Made by a program: the position numbers and the translations under genes
Shown: positions 496-22,603 of the stretch, piece after piece
How the letters are laid out: each line of letters begins with the position of its first letter
Numbering within the stretch: position 1 is the stretch's first letter
Notes under the pieces: model-generated
Database searches by the model: none
What the model saw: only the letters and a program-made list of their open reading frames with translations
What the model was told of the DNA's origin: nothing
NCBI GenBank assembly: GCA_041603795.1
Contig: JBFIDQ010000001.1
Span: 1 to 42,211 of the forward strand
Direction: 5' to 3'
DNA length: 42,211 nucleotides
Origin: Chlamydiales bacterium
GTDB taxonomy: Bacteria; Chlamydiota; Chlamydiia; Chlamydiales; JBFIDQ01

Positions 496-500
496 ATTGA

Positions 501-677: not shown

Positions 678-708
678 GGGCGCATTATAACATAATCAAT
701 TGGAGATG

Positions 709-1125
709 TCAAGCACTATCAATGTCGTAATTAAGACTCATTCTATGCGCAACCGCATCAAGGAGATTATCGAACCAACCATAATGCTTATCTTGTACTC
801 GAACTTGCCACCTTCCAGATTTTTTACTGTAACTTACCCCCACAACGCCAGATTTATTGTCTTTACGCAGCCCTCTATTTATTGTGTTAAGACCTCTTGT
901 GGCGAATCTTAAATTGGATTTTCTATTGTCTTTTTTATCCCTATTAATGTGATCGATCTCAGTACCTTCAGCGGCGCCCATAATTAACCTGTGCATGAGA
1001 ATTCCCCGCCCTGTCGGCTCTTTGTGTTTTTTCCTAGCTTTTGTTCTAAGATACCCCTCGCTAGTCTCATGCCACGTATATGAACCAACAAGTTCCTCAT
1101 CCTCTTTATCGACTAAATACTTCAC
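709..1125 (-). CDS. HNH homing endonuclease with AP2-type DNA-binding domain
   Basis: HNH core is EIDHINRDKKDNRKSNL. The AP2-like segment is SGVVGVSYSKKSGRWQVRVQDKHYGWFD. The start overlaps the RNR stop by 4 nt. Confidence 0.8.
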   Translation of the reverse strand: MKYLVDKEDEELVGSYTWHETSEGYLRTKARKKHKEPTGRGILMHRLIMGAAEGTEIDHINRDKKDNRKSNLRFATRGLNTINRGLRKDNKSGVVGVSYSKKSGRWQVRVQDKHYGWFDNLLDAVAHRMSLNYDIDSA

Positions 1126-3731: not shown

Positions 3732-3784
3732 TCTTTCATTTCTCCGATCTCAATTTTATTTCGAGCTTTTGAAAAAATCAAATT

Positions 3785-4042
3785 TCAAATGGGTTCCCAG
3801 CTAAGAACGGTTTTAGCCACTTGGGTAACTTCAAAAACATCTACTTCGTCCATACCTTCCCAAGGGCTTTCGTCTTGGCATTCTGTCGCTCCAACAGAAT
3901 AATACGCCTGATAATGTTTGTCGTTATATTTGAATATGATCTCATGTATAATAGACCACCGAGAGTTATCTACAATATTATTTTGTACAATATCTTTGCG
4001 GTTCTCAAGAATGCCCGTCATTATTTCTTTCGGTATTTTCAT
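3785..4042 (-). CDS. hypothetical protein
   Basis: 85-aa ORF in the leftward operon. Its start overlaps the stop of the upstream ORF (4039..4275) by 4 nt. Confidence 0.6.
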   Translation of the reverse strand: MKIPKEIMTGILENRKDIVQNNIVDNSRWSIIHEIIFKYNDKHYQAYYSVGATECQDESPWEGMDEVDVFEVTQVAKTVLSWEPI

Positions 4043-4275
4043 ATTTCTCTCCTGATCTTAGCCATTTCATCCGACTTAAGCAGCGCCCTCTCTTTAGTGG
4101 TGAATATGCCTCCGGATCGTGGAGCTATCCACAATGCACGCATTTCATCATGGGATAGCTCCTGCCAGTACATTAAAGCATCATGCAGGTTACCGTCCTT
4201 GAGGGATTCCTTGATAGCAAAGACCGTATCAAAGTTCTCCCTCAGGACTTCGTTATGCCGCAGTAGGCGGTCCAC
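4039..4275 (-). CDS. hypothetical protein
   Basis: 78-aa ORF that abuts the upstream ORF with no gap. Confidence 0.6.
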   Translation of the reverse strand: MDRLLRHNEVLRENFDTVFAIKESLKDGNLHDALMYWQELSHDEMRALWIAPRSGGIFTTKERALLKSDEMAKIRREI

Positions 4276-4515
4276 CTAACGACTCTTTGATCGCTGCCTT
4301 AGTATATCACAAGCCTCATCAAAGCCGTTTTCTATAAATGAATGATCAACAATCTCTGCACCACCTATGCATCTAAAAGCTTCCAATCCTCCATCCAAGT
4401 ATTCAGAGGTTTCATCAAAGCAGTCTTCAACAGGGCAGACAAACTCTATTGTGTAGACCCTGCACTGCGGATGCGGATCCGGTATATACTTATAGTCTTT
4501 TATATTCTTTCTCAT
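4276..4515 (-). CDS. hypothetical protein
   Basis: The track ORF is 4276..4536. I prefer the internal ATG at 4515 ([10 protein letters not shown]...) because it forms an ATGA overlap with the methyltransferase stop. Confidence 0.55.
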   Translation of the reverse strand: MRKNIKDYKYIPDPHPQCRVYTIEFVCPVEDCFDETSEYLDGGLEAFRCIGGAEIVDHSFIENGFDEACDILRQRSKSR

Positions 4516-5045
4516 GCTGCTTCCGGTCCTCCCCATGTCCTCATATCTGTATATGCGAGAAGGGGTGTAGCAGAGATACGTGGGCGATCAGTAAACAACA
4601 CCACCATAGACCCTCGCGGATTGCCAGGCATAGGGCTACCATCGGGACGCAGGAAGCTTATACGGGGAAAGATGTACTCTATTGAATAGGCTGTGTCGCA
4701 TACCAACTTACCCCAAAACTCTCCATTTATTGTAGGGATTAACATGACGGTCTCGAAGCCTTTCCCGGCCTGAATATGTGCCTTGTTAATCCAGGGTTCA
4801 ATGTTACTATAGGGAGGATTGCACCACCCCCTTTCTCCAAACACGATCCAGTCTTTGGAAAGTGAATCATTCCATTTGTCTATGAACTTCTCACACTTGG
4901 CATTCTGACTGTCTGCTGCAAGGTCTACATCAAAAGGTCCGTATGCAAACCTGCAATATTGGAAGACATGATCCGGCGTCCTTGCCGAATCACGTTCGTT
5001 TACTGGCGTTGTGCTTTCATTGATCAAAACGATCCTCCTAGGCAT
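4512..5045 (-). CDS. phage Dam-type DNA N6-adenine methyltransferase
   Basis: [13 protein letters not shown] is followed by WCNPPYS (NPPY catalytic motif) and then MLIP. This layout is typical of the small phage N6-A methylase family. The family name is from memory and was not searched. Confidence 0.8.
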
Positions 5046-5143
5046 TTATTTGGGCGACCATCTTTCATCCCTGAATGGCGGTAGAATTCAGTGAGGGGCT
5101 TTTCAGCCCCGCACTTGAAGCATGTTTTTATCGAGGTTGTCAT
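5024..5143 (-). CDS. possible 39-aa zinc-ribbon fragment ORF
   Basis: My own translation gives [39 protein letters not shown]. The start forms ATGA with the stop of the upstream gene. The 3' end overlaps the methyltransferase start by 22 nt in another frame. Confidence 0.3.
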
Positions 5144-5517
5144 GCAGCCTCCCGGTTAAAAGGTATGTCTTCTGCTTCTGCGGACTGACTGACGCCATCG
5201 ATGTGGAACATGTACTGTCCTGCAAACTGACCGTTGGCGATCTTCTCAGTACGGACAGTCACCTGCTGGCCGATCCATTCGTCACAGTCAGCGCCAAGGG
5301 CGTCCTTCAGGCGACCATAGTTGGTGTTGTTCAGGACAATGCCAGCTTCCTTGCCCTCGAAGTTCAGGCAGCACTTGATAACCGGATCCTCGCCTTCTTT
5401 GGCAAAGTTCGTTCCACAATGAGACCGGATGGTCAGAACGGCGGACGTTCCCGCAGGCCAGTCTTTAGCCTTGAGCCAGTCAGAGTCACTGGAGTAGTTT
5501 TGATCGTAATTGGACAT
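5140..5517 (-). CDS. hypothetical protein, possibly OB-fold ssDNA-binding-like
   Basis: The track ORF is 5140..5544. The ATG at 5517 has GAGG 8 nt upstream. The acidic segment SAEAEDIPF near the C-terminus resembles the SSB tail (DDDIPF) but is followed by 5 more residues. Confidence 0.55.
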
Positions 5518-5611
5518 AGTTTGTACCTCGTTAAGTTTAACCATTCCTGATAATCAGGGTCATAAGCAGCTTCCAACTGCTCTAATTTATCTAGCTCCCG
5601 TTTGTAAGACA

Positions 5612-5815
5612 TTATAACTCGTAGTAAATATGATTAGTAATACTGTCAGCCAGGATGGATTTAACTGCCTTGCCTATGTCCTCATCCGAATTGTAGTACC
5701 TCGATGAGACAATAGCAATAATCTCTGGCCCTAGCTCTAGCTGAACGGAGAAACAGATCTCATCCTCAACGTCCTGCTTGGATAGCTTGTTTAATATGTC
5801 GTCGAATGAAACCAT
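5612..5815 (-). CDS. hypothetical protein
   Basis: The track ORF is 5612..5845. The internal ATG at 5815 (MVSFDDILNK...) is preceded by AAGGAG. Confidence 0.6.
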   Translation of the reverse strand: MVSFDDILNKLSKQDVEDEICFSVQLELGPEIIAIVSSRYYNSDEDIGKAVKSILADSITNHIYYEL

Positions 5816-5860
5816 TTTTTCTCCTTGTTGGGCGTAGTATAACACAAATGAACCTGGATG

Positions 5861-6301
5861 TCAAGACCTAATAGCTATTATTTTCTTAAGGAATTCAAGT
5901 CTTGCTAGGCACTCAGACACATTGGCATCCCCTGAGTAATTATTAAAGAAGTATTCGACTGCTCTGTTGTAAGAAGGCCACCACTGGCAGCCAGCTTGGT
6001 AGATCCAGTCATCGCCATCCTGCCAAGCAAAAAACTGGAATGAACGGCCGTCACTACCACCGTCTACAAGGATAGTTGATGTTATATCAGCCCTGTAAAG
6101 ATGAGCGCCCCTAAAATCTGCAAAATCAAGACGGGCCTTATGCAAATTTGTCCGGGTCATGTACGCATCATGAAATGTAGCGCCCTCAAGATTCGCCTTG
6201 TAAAACGATACATCTGTAAGAATACATCCAGAAAAGTCTGCTAAGGCCAACGAAGCGGACGAGAAATCAACGCCAGCAAGGTCTTGCCCTGAATAGTTCA
6301 T
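5861..6301 (-). CDS. pentapeptide-repeat protein with non-repeat C-terminal domain
   Basis: Contiguous A(D/N)LXX-type pentapeptides are visible (DLAGVDFSSASLALADFSGCILTDVSFYKANLEGATFHDAYMTRTNLHKARLDFADFRGAHLYRADIT). The ATG at 6301 is preceded by GGAGG. It is the first gene downstream of the leftward promoter. Confidence 0.8.
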   Translation of the reverse strand: MNYSGQDLAGVDFSSASLALADFSGCILTDVSFYKANLEGATFHDAYMTRTNLHKARLDFADFRGAHLYRADITSTILVDGGSDGRSFQFFAWQDGDDWIYQAGCQWWPSYNRAVEYFFNNYSGDANVSECLARLEFLKKIIAIRS

Positions 6302-6321
6302 AATACCTCCATTGCCAAACA

Positions 6322-6350
6322 AGTATAACACAACATGTACCATTTGTCAA
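6322..6350 (-). promoter_or_regulatory. sigma70-type promoter (leftward early operon)
   Basis: The minus strand reads TTGACA, a 17-nt spacer, then TATACT, with TGT immediately upstream of the -10. It lies 20 nt upstream of the pentapeptide-repeat gene ATG. Confidence 0.7.
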
Positions 6351-6633: not shown

Positions 6634-6662
6634 TTGACATTTGAAGCCAGTTGTGTTATAGT
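6634..6662 (+). promoter_or_regulatory. sigma70-type promoter P2 (rightward early operon)
   Basis: TTGACA (6634-6639), a 17-nt spacer, then TATAGT (6657-6662). The alignment CTTGACaTTTGAagCCAGTTGTGTTATAGTAGcTAC differs from P1 at 4 positions. Confidence 0.7.
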
Positions 6663-6756
6663 AGCTACGTATATTGACAAGTGCAGAGGTTTCTACACGT
6701 TGGAATACTCAGACAGGTTTACTAGTTTCTACCTATCCTACGGCCAAGAGGAAGGC

Positions 6757-7233
6757 ATGCAGAATGCTTCCAAGGGTGGCAGGGGTGTCTGTTTCGAGGC
6801 ATGGAACAAAGCCATCAAACGGCATAAGGTAGACGAGGAAGAATTCTCCAAGAGGATCCGGAACGGTTACGTCTCGTACATGCGCAATCGTCAGGCAGTA
6901 CGGAACACTGGCGAGTTCGTCCCTCACCTTAAGATGCTCTCATCCTTCCTGAACCAGGACGTATGGGACGACATCTTTGAGGAAAGCACAGGAGAACTGC
7001 TATTAAAGGCTGTCTCCCTGAATTGCACAGAGCAGGGCTGCAAAGAAGAAGCGTTGTACGTCACTGACGTAGAGAAGCTATGCCAGCGCCACTACCTAGA
7101 GAAGAAGGTTTATCCGGAGCAGGGGGAGACTATCCGTATAATGAAGGAAGTTTACGGCCCTCCTGATGGACAGACATGGAAACAGTGGGCAATCGGAGTT
7201 GTAAAAAAGATCGGGGTTTTTGAAAATGCCTGA
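6757..7233 (+). CDS. hypothetical protein (first gene of rightward early operon)
   Basis: The track ORF begins at a TTG inside the P2 -35 box, which is implausible. The ATG at 6757 is preceded by AGAGGAAGG. The translation is MQNASKGGRGVCFEAWNK.... Confidence 0.7.
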   Translation: MQNASKGGRGVCFEAWNKAIKRHKVDEEEFSKRIRNGYVSYMRNRQAVRNTGEFVPHLKMLSSFLNQDVWDDIFEESTGELLLKAVSLNCTEQGCKEEALYVTDVEKLCQRHYLEKKVYPEQGETIRIMKEVYGPPDGQTWKQWAIGVVKKIGVFENA

Positions 7234-7438
7234 TTTCAAATGGATGCAGCATGGCCGCAGGATGGAGACACCCATAGACATCTACTGTAAGCGCTGCCTG
7301 CGCCACCACAAGAAGGCTGAGGTACATCAGTCGGTCAAGGGTCAAAGATACTACCTGTTAGCAGGCCCGCACATGACGACACACAAGAGTTTCGATGAGG
7401 CTAAGGAGAGATTGAATGATTACGCAAGAACAGGCTGA
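7226..7438 (+). CDS. hypothetical protein
   Basis: The ATG at 7226 overlaps the end of the upstream gene. The track uses TTG at 7220. Confidence 0.55.
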   Translation: MPDFKWMQHGRRMETPIDIYCKRCLRHHKKAEVHQSVKGQRYYLLAGPHMTTHKSFDEAKERLNDYARTG

Positions 7439-7733
7439 AGAAGCTCTGGAGAAGATTATAACCAATTCTTCTAAGATAGCCAAGTCTAAGGCCGAAAAGG
7501 AATATCTGGAGGAATACCGAAAGTCAAAGAAAGCCAGCCTAGTACAGCAGGCAAAAGGTACTGTCCTAGAGAAGGAATCCTATGCTTATGCCCATCCTGA
7601 TTATATAGGCGTGCTGGAAGGGCTCAGGGTGGCCCATGAGGAATATGAGCGCCGACGTTGGATGATGGTAGGCTGGCAGACCACCATAGACGTATGGCGT
7701 ACACAGGAGTCAACCCGGAGAGCGCACGGGTGA
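7416..7733 (+). CDS. hypothetical protein (charged, helical-looking)
   Basis: 105-aa ORF with a 23-nt overlap with the upstream gene. Confidence 0.6.
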   Translation: MITQEQAEEALEKIITNSSKIAKSKAEKEYLEEYRKSKKASLVQQAKGTVLEKESYAYAHPDYIGVLEGLRVAHEEYERRRWMMVGWQTTIDVWRTQESTRRAHG

Positions 7734-7984
7734 AGCATAGAGCCCCCAATGTCCTCCCTGAGTTCGAGGATATATATGAAAATCAGGGGTTTGTACATTG
7801 TGTATGTCCTGATGGTCACTACTTCAAAAACCAGGAATTCGCCGCCGGCACAGTAAGTTGTCCAACATGCGGGAAAGAGACTGAACGCATGCAATATAGC
7901 ACGCCAATGCACGAGGAAAGAAACGATCGATCCTACCTGCTAGACGAAGATTTACCTTACTTGGAAGAAGAAGATGAAGCTTAA
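7730..7984 (+). CDS. small Cys-rich (zinc-ribbon-like) protein with acidic tail
   Basis: The ORF is open from 7658. GTG at 7730 forms a GTGA overlap with the upstream stop and has GGAGA 8 nt upstream. The translation contains CVCPDGH...CPTCG. Start choice is uncertain. Confidence 0.5.
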   Translation: MKHRAPNVLPEFEDIYENQGFVHCVCPDGHYFKNQEFAAGTVSCPTCGKETERMQYSTPMHEERNDRSYLLDEDLPYLEEEDEA

Positions 7985-8402
7985 TCCTTGGGACATAGCC
8001 TTCTCCAGAGCCATCAGGGAGTCGTATAACTGGACTTGCGCTATATGTGAGATAGAGGACACAGAAGCTCAGTTCACGGGCAGGAGCAGGGCTATGCAGT
8101 GTGCTCACGTATTCTCAAGGAAGCACAAGAATGTCAGATGCCACCCTGATAACGCCGTCTGCCTCTGCGCCCGTTGCCACGCTATCATGACGGATGCCCC
8201 TACAGAGTGGGGATTATGGGTAGTAAACCACCTAGGTGAGGGCCGCTATCAAATGCTGCTCGAACGAAAAAACGATATTTCAATCAAGTATTCCAAACAG
8301 GATATGAGTGACATAGCGAATCATTACAGGCAGGAATATGCCAGGATGGTAAACGAAAAGATGCACGGAAAACAGAACGTTGAGTTAGTTTCATATGATT
8401 AG
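7974..8402 (+). CDS. putative NinG/HNH-like zinc-binding nuclease
   Basis: The pattern FSRAIRE..CAICE....CAHVFSRKH...HPDNAVCLCARCH resembles the Cys/His arrangement of lambda NinG-type proteins. This is from memory and was not searched. Confidence 0.55.
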   Translation: MKLNPWDIAFSRAIRESYNWTCAICEIEDTEAQFTGRSRAMQCAHVFSRKHKNVRCHPDNAVCLCARCHAIMTDAPTEWGLWVVNHLGEGRYQMLLERKNDISIKYSKQDMSDIANHYRQEYARMVNEKMHGKQNVELVSYD

Positions 8403-8406
8403 GGTA

Positions 8407-8435
8407 TTGACAAACACTAAAATCTATGATATACT
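8407..8435 (+). promoter_or_regulatory. sigma70-type promoter P3
   Basis: TTGACA (8407-8412), a 17-nt spacer, then TATACT (8430-8435). It sits in the 50-nt gap upstream of the muramidase gene, and a GGAG RBS follows. Confidence 0.65.
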
Positions 8436-8452
8436 GGTTATGGAGAAAATAA

Positions 8453-9019
8453 ATGGCATCTTTCGAAAAAGCCCTAAAGCCAACACTTGCGGCAGAGGGC
8501 ATCTACTCAAATGATCCAGTAGATCCGGGCGGTGAAACCTATTGCGGTATCTCTCGCAAACACAATCCGGACTGGTCAGGCTGGAAGGATATTGATGCAG
8601 GGCATCATCCGTCAGCGGACAGAGTAGCAGAATTCTATAAACCCCGCTATTGGGATGTCTTCCGGGGTGATGAGCTAAGTTCCGACATGGTGGCTCAATT
8701 GATGTTCGACTTTGCGGTCAACGCAGGCGTCCACAGGGCCGTCCAGCAGGCTCAAAGGGCGGCATCAGTGGTTGCCCTATACTCGGGCGAGGAACGCCTC
8801 ATACAGGACGGGGGATACGGCCCTAAGACCCACAGAGTCATAGCGAGCATAGGTGCTCATGAGGTTATGTGGGCCGTATACTACCTCGGAAGCAACATAG
8901 AATACTATCAGTCTATTATTCTCCAGAACGAAAGATTGTCAAAATTCGCTAAGGGATGGGCAAACCGCTGCATCCACAAGCTTGACAAGATACTGTCGGC
9001 ATGGAAACGATCCTTGTAG
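8453..9019 (+). CDS. GH108-family N-acetylmuramidase with PG_binding_3-like C-terminal domain (endolysin candidate)
   Basis: The N-terminal motif LAAEGIYSNDPVDPGGETYCGISR matches the EGGY-x-NDP-x-DPGG-x-T-x-GI signature of glycoside hydrolase family 108. DGGYGPKT appears later. Confidence 0.85.
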   Translation: MASFEKALKPTLAAEGIYSNDPVDPGGETYCGISRKHNPDWSGWKDIDAGHHPSADRVAEFYKPRYWDVFRGDELSSDMVAQLMFDFAVNAGVHRAVQQAQRAASVVALYSGEERLIQDGGYGPKTHRVIASIGAHEVMWAVYYLGSNIEYYQSIILQNERLSKFAKGWANRCIHKLDKILSAWKRSL

Positions 9020-9222
9020 CAGAGACGGTAAGACTGACATGCGAGGGTTACGCTCGCTTGGTAGAGGTTATTGGCGCTCAGGAAGACCCAGCAGCCTATA
9101 TAACACAGCTAATCAGGTTTGTTCCGCAGTTGCAGCATGAGATTCTGAGGGCTTATAGCTTCATCCTGGAGCACGTAGACGGGAACAGCTACTATCTGGC
9201 TTACCAGTCATGCAGCATATGA
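9001..9222 (+). CDS. hypothetical protein
   Basis: 73-aa ORF that overlaps the muramidase gene by 19 nt. Confidence 0.55.
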   Translation: METILVAETVRLTCEGYARLVEVIGAQEDPAAYITQLIRFVPQLQHEILRAYSFILEHVDGNSYYLAYQSCSI

Positions 9223-9389
9223 ATAAGGGCAGAAAACAGAAAATAAAGAACGGCTATGAATACGACGTACTTTATGGCCGTGACATCTACAACTACCTGA
9301 AGCGCCCTAAAGTCGCAAAAAGCATAAAGCGAGCGATGAATAAAAGGGAGCGGGTAGACTGGAAACAAGGCGTCCACACCTCCATTTAG
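9219..9389 (+). CDS. small basic protein (56 aa)
   Basis: My own translation gives MNKGRKQKIKNGYEYDVLYGRDIYNYLKRPKVAKSIKRAMNKRERVDWKQGVHTSI. It has an ATGA overlap with the upstream stop and is below the track cutoff. It replaces the antisense track ORF 9201..9455. Confidence 0.5.
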   Translation: MNKGRKQKIKNGYEYDVLYGRDIYNYLKRPKVAKSIKRAMNKRERVDWKQGVHTSI

Positions 9390-9398
9390 GAGGTTGCT

Positions 9399-10124
9399 TT
9401 GAAACATTTCTTCATTCCAGATACTCAGGTTAAGCCCGGAGTAAACACAGACCATCTTGAAGCCGCTGGTAACTACATAGCGGACAAAAGACCGGACAAG
9501 ATTATCATGATAGGCGACTGGTGGGATATGCCATCGCTGTCAAGCTACGATAAACCGGGCCAAGAGGGATGGGAAGCCAAGGACGTAGCGGCAGACTTCG
9601 CGGCCGGGAACGCGGCCATGCGCAGGATGATGGGACCAATCCTGAACGCAAAAGACTATCATCCGATGCTTATTTTCTGCATGGGGAATCACGAAGTCAG
9701 GCGAGAAAGAGCCTGCGCCGATCCCATGAACAGGAAGTTTAAAAGCTACCTCTCTGCGGATAATTTCGATCTGGACGGCTGGCGCGTCATTCCATACCTG
9801 AAGCCAGTGAAGGTAGATGGGATTCTATACTGCCATACCTTCGAGAACGTCCGTGGCATGGTAGAAACAAGGATAAAGACCGTAGGCAACAGTTTCGTAG
9901 CCGGTCATGAGCACACATACATGGTCGGAGCTTTCCATACGTCGGAAGGTCAGCGCAGAAGGGGGCTAGTATGCGGATCCTTCTACCAACATGACGAGCA
10001 CTACGTAGGCTGGCAGAAAAACAAAAAGACTTGGCGCGGATGCTTCCAGCTAAACGAGGTCAAGAACGGCGATTACGACCTACTCGAACTGAGTCTAAAA
10101 TATCTAATGAAAAGCTGGTTGTGA
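9399..10124 (+). CDS. calcineurin-like metallophosphoesterase
   Basis: Motifs present are IMIGDWWD (GDxxD), CMGNHE (GNHE) and AGHEH. The start is TTG, 5 nt after GGAGG. Confidence 0.8.
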   Translation: MKHFFIPDTQVKPGVNTDHLEAAGNYIADKRPDKIIMIGDWWDMPSLSSYDKPGQEGWEAKDVAADFAAGNAAMRRMMGPILNAKDYHPMLIFCMGNHEVRRERACADPMNRKFKSYLSADNFDLDGWRVIPYLKPVKVDGILYCHTFENVRGMVETRIKTVGNSFVAGHEHTYMVGAFHTSEGQRRRGLVCGSFYQHDEHYVGWQKNKKTWRGCFQLNEVKNGDYDLLELSLKYLMKSWL

Positions 10125-10438
10125 CGCCTAAAGACATCAAGAAGATCCCGCTATCACTCATAGTATGGGACGATATAGTCACAGAGAACAGCGGCTGGTT
10201 GGCCTTAGAGGACATAGACAGTTTGGAATCCGTCACTTGTTTTACTCCCGGCTGGATAGTCAGGGAGGACGGATATAATTATTACATAGTACAAAATTGG
10301 GGAGAACATAAGGGTATCTTTGAACCGGCTGTAGATTGCACAATCCCTAAGGGATGTGTCAGGTCTATAGTAACCTTACGGAAGCGATGGAATGGCGGTA
10401 ATAGACGATCTGATACAGGCACAACTGGAGAAATCTAG
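10121..10438 (+). CDS. hypothetical protein
   Basis: The ORF is open from 10031. GTG at 10121 forms a GTGA overlap with the upstream stop. Start choice is uncertain. Confidence 0.5.
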   Translation: MTPKDIKKIPLSLIVWDDIVTENSGWLALEDIDSLESVTCFTPGWIVREDGYNYYIVQNWGEHKGIFEPAVDCTIPKGCVRSIVTLRKRWNGGNRRSDTGTTGEI

Positions 10439-11735
10439 GGGCCTGCCTGCGCCTTCCATAGTAAAGCCTTCAAGAAAGAATGGTCAAGTAACCGTTGAAT
10501 CTCTCATAGCGCAAGGTCTCAATCCCTCCTACATAGAAAATTACGGCGACCTGCCCTATGAGCGATTCAATCCGGATCAGTACGGCCGAGGTGTAGCAAA
10601 TCTAAAATCATTTGACCAGGCTCGTGGGGTATTCAATCAATACCTAAAGATCAAACCCGGACAGCCAGGATACGACAACGCGCAGAAGTTCAAGAAACTA
10701 CTTCAATCGCAGTTCGGCATAGCGGACCCTAATAAAGCCACTGACCGCCAGTTATTCGAGGCGATGGATCTGGCCCTTCGTGATTCTCAGAAAGACAATC
10801 AGAAGGAAAACGGGTTCGGGTCCAGCATTCTAGGCAAGGCCCTCGGATTTCTAGCGCCTATAGCGGGCGGTATAGTTGGCGGACCGCTTGGTGGAGCCCT
10901 AGCGGGAGGTCTGACATCCGGTCTAACTTCCGGCAGTCCCATAGCGGGCCTTGCGGGAGCGGCGGGTGGATTTTTCGGCGGCTCTGTTTTCAATAAGGCG
11001 CTAGGGGTTGGAACCGGCGGATTGCTCGGACTCCCAGGTGGATCGCTACCCGGTCAAGCTATCAATGCCGCTAAAGGCGTGTTCGGATTCAATCAAGGCG
11101 GGTTTACTAATCCGGCAGGCTTAGGACTAAGCCCGGAGCAATTGTACAATCCTGCCAGCCTGGGTGGCTCACCGGCTAACCTGACGCAGTCACTTGCTGG
11201 CGGTGGCTTCACTAACGCGGCTGGGCTCGGCCTGGATGCTGCGCAGCTATTTCGGCAGCCACTAAACAATATCACCAATTATGCCGGCGGTGGATTCTTT
11301 AATCCGGATGCGCTAGGGATCGACGCTACGGATCTTTACAATCCGCAATCGCTAGGCGGTCCGGCTCCGTCTAGCAGCGTTAAAGACATCTTGAAAGAGA
11401 TCGGCAAGGGTATCACCAGTCTATCCGGCGGACAGCAGCAGCCTATAACGCAACGATCGACAGGGTTTAGCGTGCCGCAACTGTCACTTGCTGCGGCTAC
11501 ACCGACAGCGCAGACGATAGGCGGTACACTTCCGCAGATAACCTTTCCTCAGAATACAACTGCCGCTAGACCCGGCCTAACGGACAACCTAAGCGCGCGC
11601 CTGTTACAAGATAGATTCGGCGGTCCTGATCTGAAGGGGATCGGAAACTTTAACGCTCAAGCCAGGGGCCAGGGACTATCCGGCCCAAGCGAGAGACGCG
11701 GTCAGCGCAGACAGCAACTAGCTGCACTGGTTTAG
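10392..11735 (+). CDS. glycine-rich protein with glycine-zipper segment and three internal repeats
   Basis: A GxxxG-rich hydrophobic stretch is present (GKALGFLAPIAGGIVGGPLGGALAGGLTSGLTSG...). Three copies of GG(G)F(T/F)N-x-x-x-LG(L/I)-x-x-x-x-L(Y/F) lie at about 11094-11365. Confidence 0.75.
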   Translation: MAVIDDLIQAQLEKSRGLPAPSIVKPSRKNGQVTVESLIAQGLNPSYIENYGDLPYERFNPDQYGRGVANLKSFDQARGVFNQYLKIKPGQPGYDNAQKFKKLLQSQFGIADPNKATDRQLFEAMDLALRDSQKDNQKENGFGSSILGKALGFLAPIAGGIVGGPLGGALAGGLTSGLTSGSPIAGLAGAAGGFFGGSVFNKALGVGTGGLLGLPGGSLPGQAINAAKGVFGFNQGGFTNPAGLGLSPEQLYNPASLGGSPANLTQSLAGGGFTNAAGLGLDAAQLFRQPLNNITNYAGGGFFNPDALGIDATDLYNPQSLGGPAPSSSVKDILKEIGKGITSLSGGQQQPITQRSTGFSVPQLSLAAATPTAQTIGGTLPQITFPQNTTAARPGLTDNLSARLLQDRFGGPDLKGIGNFNAQARGQGLSGPSERRGQRRQQLAALV

Positions 11736-11742
11736 GATCCCT

Positions 11743-11775
11743 ATAGTAAGGGTTGGCAGCCTCATAGTAAGGGTT
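11743..11775. repeat. direct repeat ATAGTAAGGGTT x2, 21-nt period
   Basis: Identical 12-mers at 11743-11754 and 11764-11775, just downstream of the last rightward early gene. Confidence 0.8.
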
Positions 11776-11800
11776 TTCAAATCCGCCCAGGCCTACCGCA

Positions 11801-11868
11801 ACAGACCGAAAAAAAAATTTGAGTAATTGAGAACTATTCTCAGGTTAAGAACCATTCTCACAGACCGA
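11801..11868. repeat. iteron/operator-like repeat set with A9 tract
   Basis: ACAGACCGA occurs at 11801-11809 and 11860-11868. AGAAC(T/C)ATTCTCA occurs at 11830-11842 and 11848-11860, and each contains an AGAA-n3-TTCT inverted repeat. An A9T3 tract lies at 11809-11820. Confidence 0.7.
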
Positions 11869-12089
11869 TTCTAAGCCCGTATAAGAGGCGCAAAAATAAA
11901 CCCTAGGCCTACTATTGATTTGGAATAAAAACCCGTCACAAGCGCTTAGGTTAGCTAATACGCGGCCGTATAACGTCCGAATTGCTTTTAAGGTAGGATG
12001 CTAGCGGGTTTATGGTATCGGCCAGCGGATGAGATTATGCGAATCCTGGATTGATCCGTGACACGGCGAGATCTACCGGATTGACAGGC

Positions 12090-12117
12090 AAAAAAATACC
12101 CGCACTGTGGCGGGTAT
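12090..12117 (-). terminator. Rho-independent terminator (minus strand)
   Basis: The minus strand reads ATACCCGC-CACAGT-GCGGGTAT followed by TTTTTT. It lies 17 nt downstream of the stop of 12135..12320. Confidence 0.75.
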
Positions 12118-12134
12118 AAGGTTAGCGCGTTGGG

Positions 12135-12320
12135 TTATCGTTCGAGGTAGTTATAAACCTCCGACACAAGGGAGCCATCATAAACCCGATCACGCTCGAT
12201 CCATACTTCAACTGCAGACCATTGATCGATCTCTAATTCTGCGGCTAATTGTTCAACCCGATCAAGCGCATTGTTAAATTCGCTGATCGCCTCGTGGAAT
12301 TGGTAGTCAGAATTATGCAT
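12135..12320 (-). CDS. hypothetical small acidic protein
   Basis: 61-aa ORF, the last gene of the reverse cassette. It overlaps the upstream gene by 8 nt. Confidence 0.6.
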   Translation of the reverse strand: MHNSDYQFHEAISEFNNALDRVEQLAAELEIDQWSAVEVWIERDRVYDGSLVSEVYNYLER

Positions 12321-13035
12321 GTTCGTTCGCCTTTTTAATTGCTATGGCCAGCCCTCGTGGAGTAGCCGATCTAATGTTTTTTGTCTTTAGTGACTTGCCA
12401 CCTAGTTTAGACCATTGTTTTGAGGATTGCGAGCCCGCAGATTCGTGCATGATAGGATCGACAGGGCTTTTGCTCGGCATGCAAAACCCGTTGCCGTACC
12501 ACAATCCGGTTTTCTTTGTGTAGGCATCGCGCGGCGCTATGTAATCCGGCCATGTTGGGTGTTCGGCTTCTCTCTCCAGGATATAACCGCCGAATTCATA
12601 TGGATGAATGTAAACGTTGGGCTTTCGCCATAACGTTGAAAGAGCGCCTACGGGATTTTCGATCACATAAGGCGATCGGTAATAATCCGCAACACATACG
12701 GCAAATTGAGCTAAATTCACTGCTTTAGTTTGGAATTCCGGATCGGCCTTGCGTTTCTTTTTCCAGTGTTTCGCGCCACTAACCGCTAGATCAGTACAAG
12801 GTGGAAAGGCGAGCACAAGCTTTACAGATCCCGGCAAATAAGGTTTCCCAATACTTTTGAGCGTATTAATCAAATCTCCAAGACTGGACAATTTAGCGTG
12901 CGCATACGTTATACCGTCGATCACCTTTACGCCGTTATGCTGAATGTCAAAGCATATACAATCATGACCACTATCTCGCCAGGGTTTGACGGCTTCGCCA
13001 GTGTAATCAAAAAGACTAATAATCATTTTGTTCAC
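12313..13035 (-). CDS. DNA (cytosine-5) methyltransferase-like protein (divergent, short)
   Basis: SLFDYTGE resembles motif I (FxGxG). FPPCTDLAVSG resembles motif IV (PC catalytic dipeptide). VIENPVG resembles motif VI (ENV). GGAG lies upstream of the ATG. At 240 aa it is short for the family. Confidence 0.6.
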   Translation of the reverse strand: MNKMIISLFDYTGEAVKPWRDSGHDCICFDIQHNGVKVIDGITYAHAKLSSLGDLINTLKSIGKPYLPGSVKLVLAFPPCTDLAVSGAKHWKKKRKADPEFQTKAVNLAQFAVCVADYYRSPYVIENPVGALSTLWRKPNVYIHPYEFGGYILEREAEHPTWPDYIAPRDAYTKKTGLWYGNGFCMPSKSPVDPIMHESAGSQSSKQWSKLGGKSLKTKNIRSATPRGLAIAIKKANEHA

Positions 13036-13090
13036 TCCGAGATCAAAATATAAACAACAATCATAACTAGAATAAAGTCTAAATATCCCA

Positions 13091-13789
13091 TTACCCTAAA
13101 TCTCCTGCAACATGATGTCGCAACACAGTCCCGCGCGGCAAGTCTTCGACGAAGTCTGACAGTTTAGCCGCATCTGACACGCTCTCGTCTCGTCTCGCAA
13201 GCTTTCGCCAGTGTAGGCCAACATTGCCGCCGGAAGCGTAACAACCGCCCGATCCTTCGCCTACCTTACGCTTTGCCGCGCCGTGAGCAGGAAACACGAT
13301 CACATAATCCCGATCCCGCGCGCATAACGGAACATCACCACCGCAATTGTTGCAGCCGATCTTGTCCTGATAAGTTGCGGGGCATTGGACAAACCGCACG
13401 CCACGCTGTCTCCAATGTTTTCGCACCTTATCCTCAGGCAATGCTAAGACCGTGTTAATACCCGCCTTACAGGACCGTACAGCGGCTCTGAGGGTATCCG
13501 CGCTATGATTGATCATCGTCGCCGGCCCTGTCCCCCGCATTGCTTGCCACTTTTTAAGCCATTTTCGCGGGCTAAAATGTGTGTATGTGAACGCTATCCC
13601 CTTGCGAGGTACAGCACGCACAAGAGCTTCAAAATACTGCCAATCGATCGACAGTGTTCCGCGTTCACCTGCCGGCATTAATGCGCAGTTACTAGGGCAG
13701 TTACCGTACGGATTACCCGAGCTTGCGCGATAAGTGACAGCCAATCCGGCAGTTTTGGCGGCACCGGACACCGCAGTCGTGATCAACAT
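13091..13789 (-). CDS. Cys-rich protein of unknown function
   Basis: The 232-aa ORF has Cys clusters GNCPSNC, QCPATY, GCNNCGGDVPLC and GGCYASGG. The C-terminus ends RHHVAGDLG. I could not place it in a family with confidence. Confidence 0.7.
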   Translation of the reverse strand: MLITTAVSGAAKTAGLAVTYRASSGNPYGNCPSNCALMPAGERGTLSIDWQYFEALVRAVPRKGIAFTYTHFSPRKWLKKWQAMRGTGPATMINHSADTLRAAVRSCKAGINTVLALPEDKVRKHWRQRGVRFVQCPATYQDKIGCNNCGGDVPLCARDRDYVIVFPAHGAAKRKVGEGSGGCYASGGNVGLHWRKLARRDESVSDAAKLSDFVEDLPRGTVLRHHVAGDLG

Positions 13790-13966
13790 CTATTTTACCT
13801 CTCTCAAGCGTGTGACAGTAAATTCCCAATCATGATCGCCATCCGCTGCGCGGTCTACTAGATCTTGGGCTACTTTGAAAGCCTCGAACTCATCAGTGAG
13901 CGGTCCAAAGCACATAGGATCAGTACTGTCGCTTGTGGCTATGACTACAAATAACGGATCCATCAT
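13790..13966 (-). CDS. hypothetical small acidic protein (58 aa)
   Basis: My own translation gives MMDPLFVVIATSDSTDPMCFGPLTDEFEAFKVAQDLVDRAADGDHDWEFTVTRLREVK. It has an ATGA overlap upstream, and its stop abuts the ATG at 13789. Confidence 0.5.
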   Translation of the reverse strand: MMDPLFVVIATSDSTDPMCFGPLTDEFEAFKVAQDLVDRAADGDHDWEFTVTRLREVK

Positions 13967-14295
13967 TGATCCCCTGTAAGCTTGCTAACGTCTGATTCGT
14001 TCAGGGTAAACCGCAGTCGTTTAGTCTTGCCGCAAAACGTACCGGATTCAACGATTGCGTATCCTGTCGGAATCTTTACGGTCTTAACCTCGAAGTCTGG
14101 CCACGTCGCGCCCGTGATAGGCTCACGCGTTCCCGTCGCAAGGTTTACAAGATCATATGCTGAAATACTTCCGCCGGACCAATTCATTGAGCTAGTGTTA
14201 ATCGTAAGATGATCGGCGCAATGGTACGTGAACGATTTTTTACGATTGCCCATTGCAAGGTGTTTCGGTGGCGCTTTTTTAACTTCTGTGAACAT
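13963..14295 (-). CDS. hypothetical protein
   Basis: 110-aa ORF with a 1-nt overlap with the upstream gene. Confidence 0.65.
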   Translation of the reverse strand: MFTEVKKAPPKHLAMGNRKKSFTYHCADHLTINTSSMNWSGGSISAYDLVNLATGTREPITGATWPDFEVKTVKIPTGYAIVESGTFCGKTKRLRFTLNESDVSKLTGDQ

Positions 14296-14447
14296 TATTC
14301 ATTCTCCATAAGGTAACGATCCAGGGGGGCAAATGGCGGCAATTCTATATCATCGAATTCCCAAGGATCAAGATCCGGCTCATCTTCGATCAATTGTTCA
14401 CCGTGAATAAGAACGTATTGATCAAGCAATTCATCTAGTGTGAACAT
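14295..14447 (-). CDS. small highly acidic protein (50 aa)
   Basis: The internal ATG at 14447 (MFTLDELLDQ...) follows GGAGA and lies just after the upstream stop. I counted 16 Asp/Glu against 1 Arg in the translation. Confidence 0.55.
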   Translation of the reverse strand: MFTLDELLDQYVLIHGEQLIEDEPDLDPWEFDDIELPPFAPLDRYLMENE

Positions 14448-14448
14448 G

Positions 14449-14646
14449 CTAATCGTCTCCGTAATAATTGAAGCTCGGATCATCGCGATCCTCGCGTGCT
14501 AGTTCGGTCTTCGCATCGTGATAATCATCGCGTAAAGCCTCGATTCTGTCGTGCTCGCAATCCTCACAGAGCAGATCGTCACCGTAAGGTACACATACAT
14601 GATCATCGAGGTATTCGCCGCACCATTTACATTGGAATATTGCCAT
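14449..14646 (-). CDS. small zinc-ribbon protein with acidic tail
   Basis: CKWCG...CEDCEH gives two CxxC pairs. The C-terminal half is acidic. Confidence 0.6.
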   Translation of the reverse strand: MAIFQCKWCGEYLDDHVCVPYGDDLLCEDCEHDRIEALRDDYHDAKTELAREDRDDPSFNYYGDD

Positions 14647-14867
14647 TATTGATCACCGTACACCAGGGCTTTAATGTAATCGTGGCAAACTTGCGCTTCT
14701 TTAAGCGCCTGCTCAGCCTCACTGATAAGAACACGCGCCATACTTTTATACCCATGCCGAGCGCAGTGCAAAGCCTGTTTAGCATGCTTACTGGCGGATT
14801 CAATAAAATACTGCTCTTGCTCGGTTCCATATTCAATCATGGCGAATTTAAGGTTTGGTGACATCAT
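14646..14867 (-). CDS. hypothetical protein
   Basis: The track ORF is 14646..14918. The ATG at 14867 is preceded by AAGGAG. Confidence 0.6.
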   Translation of the reverse strand: MMSPNLKFAMIEYGTEQEQYFIESASKHAKQALHCARHGYKSMARVLISEAEQALKEAQVCHDYIKALVYGDQ

Positions 14868-14900
14868 GTTGATTACTCCTTTTTTCAATGTGTAGGGCCG

Positions 14901-14928
14901 ATTATAGGGGCAAATCATGATCCGTCAA
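14901..14928 (-). promoter_or_regulatory. sigma70-type promoter of the reverse cassette
   Basis: The minus strand reads TTGACG, a 16-nt spacer, then TATAAT. It lies about 33 nt upstream of the ATG at 14867. Confidence 0.6.
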
Positions 14929-16304: not shown

Positions 16305-16486
16305 GGACCCTTTTACAGTATTTGGCTACTTTATCTGGTGCTGCGGAATCTGAAAAGTCAGATGAATACTTCCGACAATATAAAAAGGCTGATGAGGAAT
16401 TCTGGGAATCCATTGAAGACCTTGATCAGACTATTACGAAATTCAGAAAAAAGGAAAAGGAACATGAAGCCGGTAGTGGGATTTAA
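16301..16486 (+). CDS. hypothetical protein
   Basis: 61-aa ORF with an ATGA overlap with the upstream gene. Confidence 0.5.
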   Translation: MRTLLQYLATLSGAAESEKSDEYFRQYKKADEEFWESIEDLDQTITKFRKKEKEHEAGSGI

Positions 16487-16491
16487 CGACT

Positions 16492-16989
16492 ATGTGGACT
16501 GGATGGAAGATTTTGCTTCTGCTTGTGGCTGGCCTTGGGGACAGGGTAAGGGGTGGGTTTCCAGTGGAGAGGCCGAAAGCTCTGAAGTACCTAAGCATGG
16601 CATCAGTTGGGCTTATAATGGGGCTTTTGGTCACATCGAGTATAAAACTGATTCTAGCCAGTGGCCTCTTGGTACTTTTAGGGTCCTGGAGGACGGATAA
16701 CGGATGGAGGGGCGGATACGTTCAAGGCCAAGGTCTTTGGTGGAAACCCTTACGCTGGGGAGCTCTTTGGGGCACGCCTTTTGTCCTCTTGGGGTATTGG
16801 GAGCCGTTATTTTTCTTAATGCCCTTCTGTGGAGCACTAGGGGCTTTTCTGGCTATCCATATAGCAGTGAAATTGCCCCCGATAGGTATCTTTGACCTCA
16901 AACATGGTTGGCCCTGGTCAGAATTGATTGAAATGCCGATTATTGGGCTGATTGTTATCATATTACTGGAGATTATTCATGGATTCTAA
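16492..16989 (+). CDS. multi-pass membrane protein
   Basis: Several long hydrophobic segments are present (MASVGLIMGLLVTSSIKLILASGLLVLLG, WGTPFVLLGYWEPLFFLMPFCGALGAFLAIHIAV, MPIIGLIVIILLEII). This is the only open frame from 16700 to 16989. The start is uncertain (16492 or 16597). Confidence 0.5.
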   Translation: MWTGWKILLLLVAGLGDRVRGGFPVERPKALKYLSMASVGLIMGLLVTSSIKLILASGLLVLLGSWRTDNGWRGGYVQGQGLWWKPLRWGALWGTPFVLLGYWEPLFFLMPFCGALGAFLAIHIAVKLPPIGIFDLKHGWPWSELIEMPIIGLIVIILLEIIHGF

Positions 16990-17164
16990 ACCTTTTTGGG
17001 CTAGTAAGACCATCTGGACGAATATTATCGCTGTAGCTGCTGCTGTAGCTGTTGCTATGGGTGTAGACATCGGTCCTGAGATGCAGGCCACCACGGTAGC
17101 CTTCATTATGGGTGTTGCTAACATCGCTCTCCGTCTTATTACGAAGGATGCGGTCAAAGTTTGA
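16979..17164 (+). CDS. holin-like two-TM small membrane protein
   Basis: The translation is MDSKPFWASKTIWTNIIAVAAAVAVAMGVDIGPEMQATTVAFIMGVANIALRLITKDAVKV. It has two hydrophobic helices and lies in the membrane-protein cluster. Confidence 0.5.
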   Translation: MDSKPFWASKTIWTNIIAVAAAVAVAMGVDIGPEMQATTVAFIMGVANIALRLITKDAVKV

Positions 17165-20742: not shown

Positions 20743-21155
20743 GTATTTTTTTTGATGACAATTCTGGATCTCCGTCAGATACTACTGACGGAATTCCAGT
20801 AAAGCTAAAAGACTCATTAGCCAATGAAAGAAATCCCGGGACGGCAAACGAGTATGGTGTGTCTGTTCCTGAGTGGAACTATACTGTAATAGATCACGCA
20901 GACACATCGCCTGTAGCAGTATCTGGCGGCGTTCCGGCAATAATAGGTAATGTTTACTGCTCTGAAGCAATGGCCGGAAGCCCTGATTTTGCATTCTACG
21001 ATGATTCTACAGAGGTTTATCCGATGCCGGTATCTATGACTTTATCTTCGGAAAAGCTGTCCCTTGCCGGTACAATTTTTGCCACTGACCTTAACTGCGT
21101 CATAGCGTCTGCTGGAACTGCGGGGAAGATAGTTGTTCAATGGCGAGTTAAGTAA
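20739..21155 (+). CDS. hypothetical protein
   Basis: The ATG at 20739 forms an ATGA overlap with the upstream stop. The track start is TTG at 20712. Confidence 0.6.
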   Translation: MSIFFDDNSGSPSDTTDGIPVKLKDSLANERNPGTANEYGVSVPEWNYTVIDHADTSPVAVSGGVPAIIGNVYCSEAMAGSPDFAFYDDSTEVYPMPVSMTLSSEKLSLAGTIFATDLNCVIASAGTAGKIVVQWRVK

Positions 21156-22603
21156 TGACGACAAGATATTCTGTAAATAAACAAAGGAATTCAAGTTATC
21201 TTGACATTGAATCGGCCTTTACAAATGCTGCGTTTTTAGGCGGCGGTAGATTTAATAGCTCGTTATTAACTTTGGATGGCGTTGGGGCAGATAGCACAAC
21301 CACGGGTACGTGGGTAAGCCTGGGTGTGTCGGAAGATCATTCAGGACTGCTGACCGAAGGGTCTTTAATGATGTGGCTAAACAGTGACTATGTAGCTGGA
21401 GGTCTCGATTCCAGCGGATCTGTGATTGCGGCAGTAAATGCCGCTTCGCTCCCGGCTTCAATAATGAATAGAGACGGCTCTGATGCAAATAGAGGAACTA
21501 TAGTTGTAGACCCGAATGGGTATATTGACAGCCAATTAGTTATACCTTCAACTGATGATGAATATTTGCATTATAATTTAAATATTGCTTGGCGAGGCAA
21601 GGGTTCGTGGATTCCAATAATTCATCAATGGAGTTCTTCGGGTAGATTCCAGACAATTGTTGATGGCCTTGTTGTTGCGGATTCGCAAATAGGAACCTAC
21701 GATTTTCATTCGTTGGACATGAATCCTTACGACGTAAGAGACCCTAACGCTTCCACTGATTCGGACGCGTTAAGAAATGTTGCTTTGCTTGATTCTTTTC
21801 AGGATATTGGATCACCGAAAATAAGAATTGGTTTTATAGGTGATTCGTTAATGAACTTTGGCGGATTCCCAGACTGGATGTGGAGCAGCAGAACAACTCA
21901 ACGCCCTGACTGGATACCTATTGAAAATTCTTTCGCTACTGCTGGCCCAAAAGGAATAGACGGCTCAAATGGTGCGGCAGCCGAGTCAGTAAACGGAAAG
22001 CATTATGATGCCGGTGCATTAACTACAATTATAAGAATGGCTCACAAATCAGGATACTTGTCTTCTAAAAACCTGAACTTCACACAGGGTGGAGCAACGA
22101 CAGCACAAATAAAGACAAATCTTAACAACCTATTGTCTATTGGTGTGCCAAATGTTGTTTTTTGCAATGCCGGACAGAACGATGCAAATGACGGTGCTAG
22201 CTTTGACGCATCAGCAAAAACAACCTTCGAATCAAATTTAAAGAGCATGGTATCTACAGCATACAATTCAAAAGTAAATCAGTTTATAACAAGCACGCTG
22301 CACTCAATGCAGAACAACACAACTTATTCAGATCAAGTGTACGCCGACAACGTTGATTACTGCAATGCGGTTATAAACAGTCTACCTCGCTGGTCTAAAA
22401 GACAAGGGTATGGCGATAAGTTTTTAAGGGTTGCTGACAATTTTACAGCTTTCGGCGGGCATTCGTTCGACTCTAATTTGTTCTTAACAAATGATGTTCA
22501 TCATTCAACTGCTGGAAGTTATCTTTTTGGATATGAAATGGGGAAAATGATAAGCGATATAGTCCTTGGTAAAAGGTTTATGGTAGGCGCAAGATCTAGT
22601 TAA
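21155..22603 (+). CDS. two-domain protein with C-terminal SGNH/GDSL hydrolase (putative polysaccharide esterase)
   Basis: Block I is IGFIGDSL. Block III is FCNAGQNDAND. Block V is TNDVHHS. The roughly 220-aa N-terminal region has no recognised motif. Confidence 0.7.
   Translation: MTTRYSVNKQRNSSYLDIESAFTNAAFLGGGRFNSSLLTLDGVGADSTTTGTWVSLGVSEDHSGLLTEGSLMMWLNSDYVAGGLDSSGSVIAAVNAASLPASIMNRDGSDANRGTIVVDPNGYIDSQLVIPSTDDEYLHYNLNIAWRGKGSWIPIIHQWSSSGRFQTIVDGLVVADSQIGTYDFHSLDMNPYDVRDPNASTDSDALRNVALLDSFQDIGSPKIRIGFIGDSLMNFGGFPDWMWSSRTTQRPDWIPIENSFATAGPKGIDGSNGAAAESVNGKHYDAGALTTIIRMAHKSGYLSSKNLNFTQGGATTAQIKTNLNNLLSIGVPNVVFCNAGQNDANDGASFDASAKTTFESNLKSMVSTAYNSKVNQFITSTLHSMQNNTTYSDQVYADNVDYCNAVINSLPRWSKRQGYGDKFLRVADNFTAFGGHSFDSNLFLTNDVHHSTAGSYLFGYEMGKMISDIVLGKRFMVGARSS

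Follow-up and report, generated by a model that had tools for sequence, protein, structure and literature searches.

Orphan DNA methylases are a familiar form of phage counter-defence. Phages also carry cytosine hypermodification clusters, in which a C5-methyltransferase is combined with a TET/JBP enzyme, with or without a glycosyltransferase (Burke et al., 2021; PMC8256090). Here we describe a cassette of eight minus-strand genes at positions 12135-14867 of a 42,211-bp contig (JBFIDQ010000001.1, assembly GCA_041603795.1), which belongs to a phage and is referred to below, at its full length, as the window. Two of the eight genes carry most of our argument: c2, which encodes a short orphan C5-cytosine-methyltransferase-like protein, and c3, which encodes a Cys-rich protein of the DUF7227/GP88 'three-Cys' superfamily. 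With c2, a family of methylases that is already very common and annotated gains a member, and c3 represents a new, rearranged form of a Pfam domain of unknown function. Genes of the GP88 superfamily are frequent, though not obligatory, neighbours of this methylase clade, and both this adjacency and the swap of the partner in the relative L199 appear to be undescribed. Because orphan methylases are so familiar in phage counter-defence, the core of the cassette is in itself ordinary. We favour, with modest confidence, the reading that the cassette is an early accessory operon for self-methylation of phage DNA against restriction, with an unexplained and partly conserved partner.

The methylase gene lies at 12313..13026 on the minus strand and encodes 237 amino acids (aa); its start is most likely the ATG at 13026 rather than that of the 240-aa open reading frame (ORF), in agreement with the 237-aa product on record. 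The protein gives a full-length match to phrog_757 ('DNA methyltransferase'; residues 1-239, E = 1.2e-71). The FDYTG, PPCT and ENP motifs that a first-pass annotation of the sequence had picked out are present in the 240-aa ORF: DYTG (motif I) sits within SLFDYTGEA in the N-terminal beta1-loop, FPPCT (motif IV) contains Cys80, and ENP is motif VI. Across 28 homologues of 51-57% identity, T12, C80, E126, N127, P128 and the C-terminal KTKNIRSATPRG are invariant and D10 and G13 are nearly so (at least 90%). Motif I is a variant of FxGxG. The invariance of C80, E126, N127, P128 and KTKNIRSATPRG argues for a constrained, probably active enzyme. The target-recognition region is very short.

The assignment to the C5-methyltransferase fold, which agrees with the methyltransferase-like label of the first-pass annotation, is further supported by structure comparison in addition to the phrog_757 match. 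An AlphaFold2 (AF2) model of c2 with a predicted local distance difference test score (pLDDT) of 80 gave 70 matches at E<=1e-3 in a Foldseek search of the PDB, led by DNMT3A/3B, DNMT1, DIM2 and Met1 with template modelling (TM) scores of 0.4-0.5; the E-values for DNMT3A/B and DNMT1 range from 2e-6 to 1e-4. Together with the invariant motifs, these matches identify c2 as a minimal protein of the C5-methyltransferase fold. A sequence-profile search of the PDB with the methylase alignment returned nothing meaningful.

The phrog_757 family is found in 1523 of 50,697 phage records and has more than 4500 database proteins, which depositors label as Dcm or C5 methylase. Its carriers include Jerseyvirus/Kagunavirus, Vequintavirinae, Salmonella phage 7-11 and roseophage CRP-207, among others, and no measured specificity for any member was apparent in the literature searched. 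The NCBIfam pair naming, 'three-Cys-motif protein' with TcmP, served as a lead only. The methylase and 27 homologues have no match to the NCBIfam TcmP model at E<=1 and the TcmP literature gave no function, and a TcmP-type pairing was rejected.

The c3 gene (13091..13789, minus strand) lies 56 bp upstream of c2 and 1.2 kb from TerS. Its 232-aa product, which the first-pass annotation had described as Cys-rich, has eight cysteines and matches Pfam DUF7227 (PF23872) with an E-value of 8e-36 (124.2 bits against a cut-off of 27), as do all 34 homologues examined. A word-index protein search finds 886 homologues and an exhaustive profile search 1720 representatives. Invariant in the alignment are K12, Y20, R21, C31, C35, H71, N94, S96, C136, C146, C149 and C156, together with R158, R160, H169, C183, R224 and D230. 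Only positions 91-218 of the DUF7227 profile align collinearly with c3. When window-type and canonical DUF7227 alignments are compared with hhalign (E = 1e-50), a gap falls where canonical members have GCYA..G..HW...LP.G..RHNxAGDLP, and the C-terminal 57 aa of the c3 type (GGCYASGGNV...LRHHVAGDLG) map instead to canonical positions 38-93 (hhalign E = 3e-19). The GCYA...RHHxAGD segment, about 55 aa long, has thus left the N-terminal third and now lies at the C-terminus, giving the order A-C-B in place of A-B-C and breaking the canonical motif order CPxxC - GCYA - RHxxAGD - TYTH - NxS - CPA/CxxC - HG. Because of this transposition, the third Cys lies about 150 residues from the first two.

The relation of c3 to GP88 is transitive. 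No direct match to GP88 (PF17338) is found for c3 and only one of the 34 homologues matches it (E = 0.0013), while canonical DUF7227 aligns with the GP88-type neighbours of methylases described below at an hhalign probability of 97.6% (E = 3e-12). These GP88-type proteins also cross-match DUF5131 (PF07505), DUF7227 and phrog_2554, and a third type within the superfamily, represented by two loci (L089 and L199), aligns with canonical DUF7227 at E = 6e-13. We found no publication, solved structure or known function for GP88, DUF7227 or DUF5131 in the resources searched, and literature searches for DUF7227, PF17338 or DUF5131 with phage returned none; the 'gp88' of PMC12191111 is an unrelated gene 88 of Pseudomonas phage 14-1 that encodes an END-nuclease inhibitor.

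The AF2 model of c3 is a confident alpha/beta structure (pLDDT 94, predicted TM score 0.90), and none of its 592 Foldseek matches in the PDB reaches E<=0.001 (best E = 0.14, TM at most 0.21). Good matches in BFVD are to DUF7227 proteins only, with weak ones to GP88, Gp37/Gp68 and a radical S-adenosylmethionine (SAM) protein. A radical SAM identity for c3 was considered and rejected, as the protein has CX3C and a distant Cys rather than CX3CX2C, no Radical_SAM Pfam match, and no radical SAM structure among the best 50 of the 592 PDB matches; the sole traces of one are the BFVD match, with a probability of 0.10, and sub-threshold matches to designed TIM barrels. The latter arise with the DUF7227 profile, which matches sTIM11 and HalluTIM over positions 79-129 with whole-sequence E-values of 6e-5 to 4e-4 but has no individual stretch that passes; they hint at a beta/alpha-repeat architecture in DUF7227 but may be a compositional effect. 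Beyond them, neither the DUF7227 nor the GP88 alignment retrieved a meaningful match when used as a sequence profile against the PDB.

We further note that window-type DUF7227 genes nearly always lie between TerS and TerL in a lineage of freshwater phages (DSL-LC04, positions 16428-17123 [L001/L283], as well as L004, L005 and about 80 IMG/VR loci). Some 2 kb upstream of these genes is one for a 140-aa protein that was assigned by eye, from its sequence, as a putative nuclease, and a gene for a 342-aa protein lies downstream.

Evidence that the methylase and a GP88-superfamily protein tend to occur together comes from 83 methylase loci, 80 of them from a scan of IMG/VR and three (L087-L089) from contig look-ups. 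In two of the latter, L087 and L088, which hold the closest homologues of the methylase, a Pfam GP88 protein is encoded one to four genes upstream. A DUF7227 hidden Markov model (HMM) applied directly to the methylase loci finds almost nothing, and the link surfaced only after iteration from the Pfam-annotated GP88 neighbours. The iterated HMM places a GP88-superfamily partner in 44 of the 83 loci and, among those whose upstream flank extends for 3 kb or more, in 34 of 51 (67%), nearly always upstream, on the same strand and at a distance of 0-2.3 kb. In a control set of 25 unrelated phage loci (258 kb), no partner is found. The 80 IMG/VR loci are not phylogenetically independent. The methylases form one cluster with a median identity of 60%, while the partners, when clustered at 30% identity, fall into eight clusters, and BLASTP yields no alignment for 65% of the pairs among them. 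The association does not hold everywhere: a partner is missing from all 22 full-length methylase loci of bacterial genomes and from six of six cultured phages with the methylase, only three of 60 GP88 loci carry the methylase, and no methylase lies within 10 kb of the gene at 84 window-type DUF7227 loci, which include that of the cultured phage DSL-LC04, checked over its first 50 kb.

Close relatives of the phage itself are scarce. TerL shares only about 41-43% identity with its counterparts in Vibrio, Rhizobium and Xylella podophages. Neither GenBank phages nor E. coli genomes include a close relative of the window: both were searched by megablast with the cassette and with 25 kb of the late region, and no match resulted. 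Scans of IMG/VR and JGI metagenomes with TerS, the phosphoesterase and a TerS alignment yielded no related genome. The sole relative found, reached through a protein database, is L199, a 3.4-kb ENA contig (ERZ28600778 scaffold_953) whose TerS is 51% identical to that of the phage. Its layout is the same: the Gly-rich gene and TerS flank a reverse cassette, which holds a homologue of c6, a 235-aa DUF7227-like protein of the third type, a methylase remnant and unrelated small acidic genes, in that order. The remnant (1292-1504) comprises the 70 N-terminal residues of the methylase at 51% identity, includes 48 nt that are 90% identical in DNA to positions 12979-13026 of the window, and is followed by an unrelated acidic ORF of 165 aa. 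Polymorphism of cassette content at this site, with partly different genes, is known from L199 only.

The eight minus-strand genes form a unit with a promoter and a terminator of its own, as the first-pass annotation had claimed and as the ORF list and a scan for regulatory sites bear out. In the ORF list the genes span 12135-14918 before correction of starts. A sigma70-type promoter, TTGACG-16-TATAAT, with 11 of 12 consensus matches lies at 14901..14928 (minus strand), and an intrinsic terminator at 12096..12117 (minus strand), 18 nt past the c1 stop, reads ATACCCGC-loop-GCGGGTAT followed by T7, with an 8-bp stem that includes five GC pairs and a 6-nt loop. For the first gene, the likeliest start is ATG 14867, which is preceded by an AAGGAG Shine-Dalgarno sequence, and not at ATG 14918, because the latter falls inside the promoter. 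Neighbouring genes abut or overlap at ATGA-type junctions and each has a plausible Shine-Dalgarno sequence, which argues for a genuine operon.

Seven sigma70-type sites with at least 11 of 12 matches are found in the window (712-, 5864-, 6350-, 6634+, 8407+, 8942- and 14928-), all at the starts of early operons. The 25-kb late block (15024-39593) has no promoter at this threshold, only a single weak 10/12 match inside a gene, and no phage RNA polymerase was seen in the window; late transcription therefore probably requires an activator or a sigma factor. The cassette has an ordinary promoter type and a GC content similar to that of its flanks, and thus has the look of an early operon native to the phage, not of an insert of foreign composition. 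The earlier description of the cassette as a moron-like unit is supported by its own promoter and terminator, and the one relative, L199, has partly different content at the site; GC content and promoter type do not suggest a foreign origin.

On the reading we favour, host RNA polymerase would transcribe the operon early from the promoter at 14928 and stop at 12096. The methylase, which supplies the only activity that can be assigned to the cassette, would act post-replicatively at a short motif in phage DNA, methylating cytosine at C5 by means of Cys80 of the PC motif as nucleophile, Glu126 of ENP and SAM bound at the DYTG and DIQH motifs. The phage encodes a second orphan methylase, a Dam-type N6-adenine methyltransferase at 4512-5045 on the minus strand (PF05869, E = 6e-34; phrog_111), and the two enzymes together would give the genome passive protection against restriction by the host; the presence of Dam in the same genome fits a methylation-based strategy of anti-restriction. 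The c3 protein, which is enzyme-like, is predicted to bind metal through a CPxxC/GCYA triad and a second Cys4 site (C136, C146, C149 and C156) and may act on a substrate, probably DNA or a nucleotide, during the same early period; alternatively, its position may reflect no more than the early-region and terminase-proximal location that is typical of its family. The acidic proteins of the cassette would act on host targets.

Several observations weigh against this reading. The methylase matches no Pfam family and no NCBIfam family at E<=1, and so misses the Pfam DNA_methylase model (PF00145); motif VIII (QxRxR) is not recognisable in its alignment, where the matching region reads HPxEYGGYIPE; and two loops of its model are of low confidence. 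In one study of phages, short C5-methyltransferases without motifs VIII-X showed no activity (PMC8256090). The promoter type is the one indication of the probable early timing of the cassette. Finally, the L199 partner gene is intact, though of another subtype than c3, while the methylase beside it has decayed, and because L199 retains the partner with only a remnant of the methylase, the benefit of the operon would not come from the methylase alone.

A possible, if rather doubtful, alternative is that c3 has nothing to do with methylation and serves in DNA packaging or early processing, its adjacency to the methylase reflecting a shared boundary of the early region and the terminase genes. 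The finding that TerS and TerL flank the window-type genes of DSL-LC04 and about 80 related contigs, along with the 140-aa putative nuclease and without a methylase, is consistent with this view, as is the frequent presence of TerS, TerL, a primase-helicase and the same putative nuclease family at GP88 loci; the 1.2 kb between c3 and TerS points in the same direction. This alternative leaves unexplained, however, the enrichment of partners upstream of a single methylase clade (34/51), their division into eight subtypes, and the order of the pair that is kept in L199 with a swapped subtype. Moreover, no terminase-like, nuclease or DNA-binding fold was detected for c3.

The first-pass annotation had raised the possibility of joint action by the methylase and the Cys-rich protein on DNA. 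In its strong form, this becomes a two-enzyme module in which c2 marks or activates cytosine at C5 and the three-Cys metalloenzyme converts the mark into a further modification or supplies an altered cofactor, giving a TET-independent hypermodification. The suggestion finds partial support in the neighbourhood counts (34/51 loci of the closest methylase clade against 0/25 controls) and in the persistence of the pair in L199, where the occurrence of different partner subtypes at the same position as in the window looks like replacement under selection. The eight partner clusters beside a single methylase cluster fit it too, and the coupling of phage C5-methyltransferases to a tailoring enzyme has a precedent in the TET clusters (PMC8256090). 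The counts in bacterial genomes (0/22) and in the six cultured phages run counter to it, as do the rarity of the methylase at GP88 loci (3/60), its absence from the 84 window-type loci and the first 50 kb of DSL-LC04, and a decayed methylase beside an intact partner in L199. In addition, the loci of the IMG/VR scan are not phylogenetically independent, no fold relative of the partner was found in the PDB, and a cofactor is only predicted. We therefore consider such cooperation unlikely. Highly doubtful is its broadest form, in which GP88, DUF7227 and DUF5131 proteins would be metal-dependent, possibly iron-sulfur (Fe-S), modifiers of DNA or nucleotides that, in phages of this kind and with a minimal enzyme of the C5-methyltransferase fold, install a cytosine modification other than 5-methylcytosine independently of TET, with c3 as a natural segment-transposed form.

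The six small proteins of the cassette raise another alternative. In order of transcription they are c8 (14646..14867), a 73-aa helical protein with only sub-threshold Pfam matches; c7 (14449..14646), a 65-aa acidic protein (net charge -14, isoelectric point [pI] 4.1) with the zinc-ribbon-like motif CxxC-x17-CxxC; c6 (14295..14447), a very acidic protein of 50 aa with 16 Asp and Glu residues (pI 4.05); c5 (13963..14295), a basic orphan of 110 aa (pI 9.2); c4 (13790..13966), an acidic orphan of 58 aa (net charge -8, pI 4.1); and, after c3 and c2, the last gene c1 (12135..12320), which encodes a 61-aa acidic protein (net charge -10) and whose start overlaps the methylase stop by 8 nt, all on the minus strand. 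The zinc-ribbon-like motif and the composition of c6 are as first described, and the earlier count of at least three very acidic small proteins rises to four (c1, c4, c6 and c7; pI 4.05-4.2, net charge -8 to -15). None of the six has an above-threshold match in Pfam, PHROGs or NCBIfam, and c5 and c6 have no tblastn match in the 50,697 phage records. Only c6 has a homologue, which is 43% identical and promoter-proximal in L199; c1 shows a weak and doubtful likeness (E = 0.13) to the last gene of the L199 cassette. Apart from c6 and, doubtfully, c1 in L199, these proteins are not found in any fetched locus. We regard them as lineage-specific early proteins and as candidates for host takeover or anti-defence.

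If c1, c4, c6 and c7 were DNA mimics or direct inhibitors of host defence, the cassette would be mainly an anti-defence island, as the first-pass annotation had envisaged. The acidity of four of the six small proteins in an early-type operon, and the conservation of promoter-proximal c6 in L199, are consistent with this idea. We nevertheless judge it quite unlikely, because no known anti-restriction or anti-defence family is matched in Pfam, PHROGs or NCBIfam, c5 and c6 are without tblastn matches, and acidic small ORFs are common elsewhere in the genome (six of 22 in the rest of the window have pI<5), as they are in phages generally; composition by itself does not sustain the claim. Pentapeptide-repeat proteins are known DNA mimics, and the 160-aa pentapeptide-repeat protein encoded at 5861-6343 on the minus strand (PF00805, E = 6e-17), which has a consensus promoter ahead of it, is therefore a better candidate for anti-restriction or gyrase protection than the acidic proteins of the cassette.

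Hardly credible is a restriction-modification-like or addiction unit in which c3 attacks unmethylated host DNA and the methylase protects that of the phage: a conserved methylase with highly divergent partners does resemble restriction-modification systems, and Cys4 metal sites occur in some nucleases, but most GP88/DUF7227 genes are without this methylase, a true cognate nuclease kept beside a dead methylase, as the partner is in L199, would be lethal unless the DNA had protection from another methylase, and no nuclease motif or fold was detected in c3.

Around the cassette, the genome is laid out in three blocks. A leftward early block (1-6343, minus strand) encodes ribonucleotide reductase, the Dam-type methylase and the pentapeptide-repeat protein. 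It is followed by a rightward block (6634-11735, plus strand) with replication-initiator-like and NinG/HNH-like proteins, an endolysin, the phosphoesterase and a Gly-rich protein. Beyond the reverse cassette, a long rightward packaging and structural block begins with TerS at 15024 (plus strand). The Gly/Ala/Pro-rich low-complexity protein that ends the block containing the endolysin (447 aa, 10392-11735, plus strand) has no family match; over the C-terminal 88 aa, its counterpart in L199 shares 59% identity. In the late block, a 482-aa protein (21155-22603, plus strand) has a GDSL lipase/acylhydrolase domain (PF00657, E = 4e-6) and may be a tail-associated esterase or depolymerase.

The Gly-rich gene and the cassette terminator both lead into a non-coding gap of 360 bp (11736-12095). 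Two exact copies of ATAGTAAGGGTT, at 11743 and 11764, are set 21 bp apart in this gap; the repeat is unique in the window and none of 100 shuffles gives two copies. The imperfect 15-nt palindromes TTGAGAACTATTCTCA and TTAAGAACCATTCTCA follow at 11827 and 11845, 18 bp apart. These repeats and palindromes could be operator, packaging (pac) or origin (ori) candidates; tRNA and Rfam scans found nothing across the window, including the gap.

These findings place GP88, DUF7227 and DUF5131, for which neither function nor fold is reported, as frequent upstream neighbours of a very common clade of phage C5-methylases. The c3 protein provides a clean natural segment transposition that is useful for defining the domain boundaries and the metal site of the superfamily, and L199 shows the swap of a partner and the decay of a methylase at the same locus. 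If the two proteins did cooperate, a new route of phage DNA modification would follow, touching on restriction sensitivity, sequencing and cloning; if they do not, a first genomic context for a large family of unknown function remains.

Among described systems, the cassette comes closest to the orphan C5 methylases of phages. The c2 protein belongs to the same family, phrog_757 (E = 1e-71), and is 46-52% identical to cultured members, which likewise have no cognate nuclease, lie among early or replication genes and are presumed to serve self-protection. It differs from the six cultured loci in its position directly downstream of a gene for a DUF7227 protein, which those loci lack. With the eukaryotic and bacterial C5-methyltransferases (DNMT3A/3B, DNMT1 and M.HhaI), c2 shares the Rossmann-type catalytic fold, the Pro-Cys of motif IV and the Glu-Asn-x of motif VI, whereas its length of about 235 aa, the lack of a PF00145 match, DYTG in place of FxGxG, the missing QxRxR and the very short target-recognition region set it apart. 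Similarly, c3 shares with DUF7227, GP88 and DUF5131 proteins the K-T-G, CPxxC, GCYA, RHxxAGD, TYTH, NxS and CPA...CxxC...C...HG motifs, and differs from them in carrying the GCYA...RHHxAGD segment at its C-terminus.

The operon organisation recalls morons and early anti-restriction cassettes, such as those of T7 0.3/Ocr and ArdA, in forming a promoter-terminator unit with very acidic small proteins. Unlike these cassettes, it has no sequence relation to Ocr, ArdA or the PHROG anti-defence families, its promoter is like the other early promoters of the phage, and its base composition is not foreign. As in the C5-methyltransferase/TET clusters, a C5-methyltransferase gene is coupled to that of a second enzyme, and partner and methylase co-vary in some lineages. 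The first-pass annotation had gone further in proposing hypermodification, a proposal that finds no support, as Pfam and PHROGs reveal no TET/JBP, glycosyltransferase, kinase or other tailoring enzyme in the cassette; in contrast to those clusters, the partner here is an unrelated Cys-rich protein, and the coupling, known here from genes alone, is far from universal.

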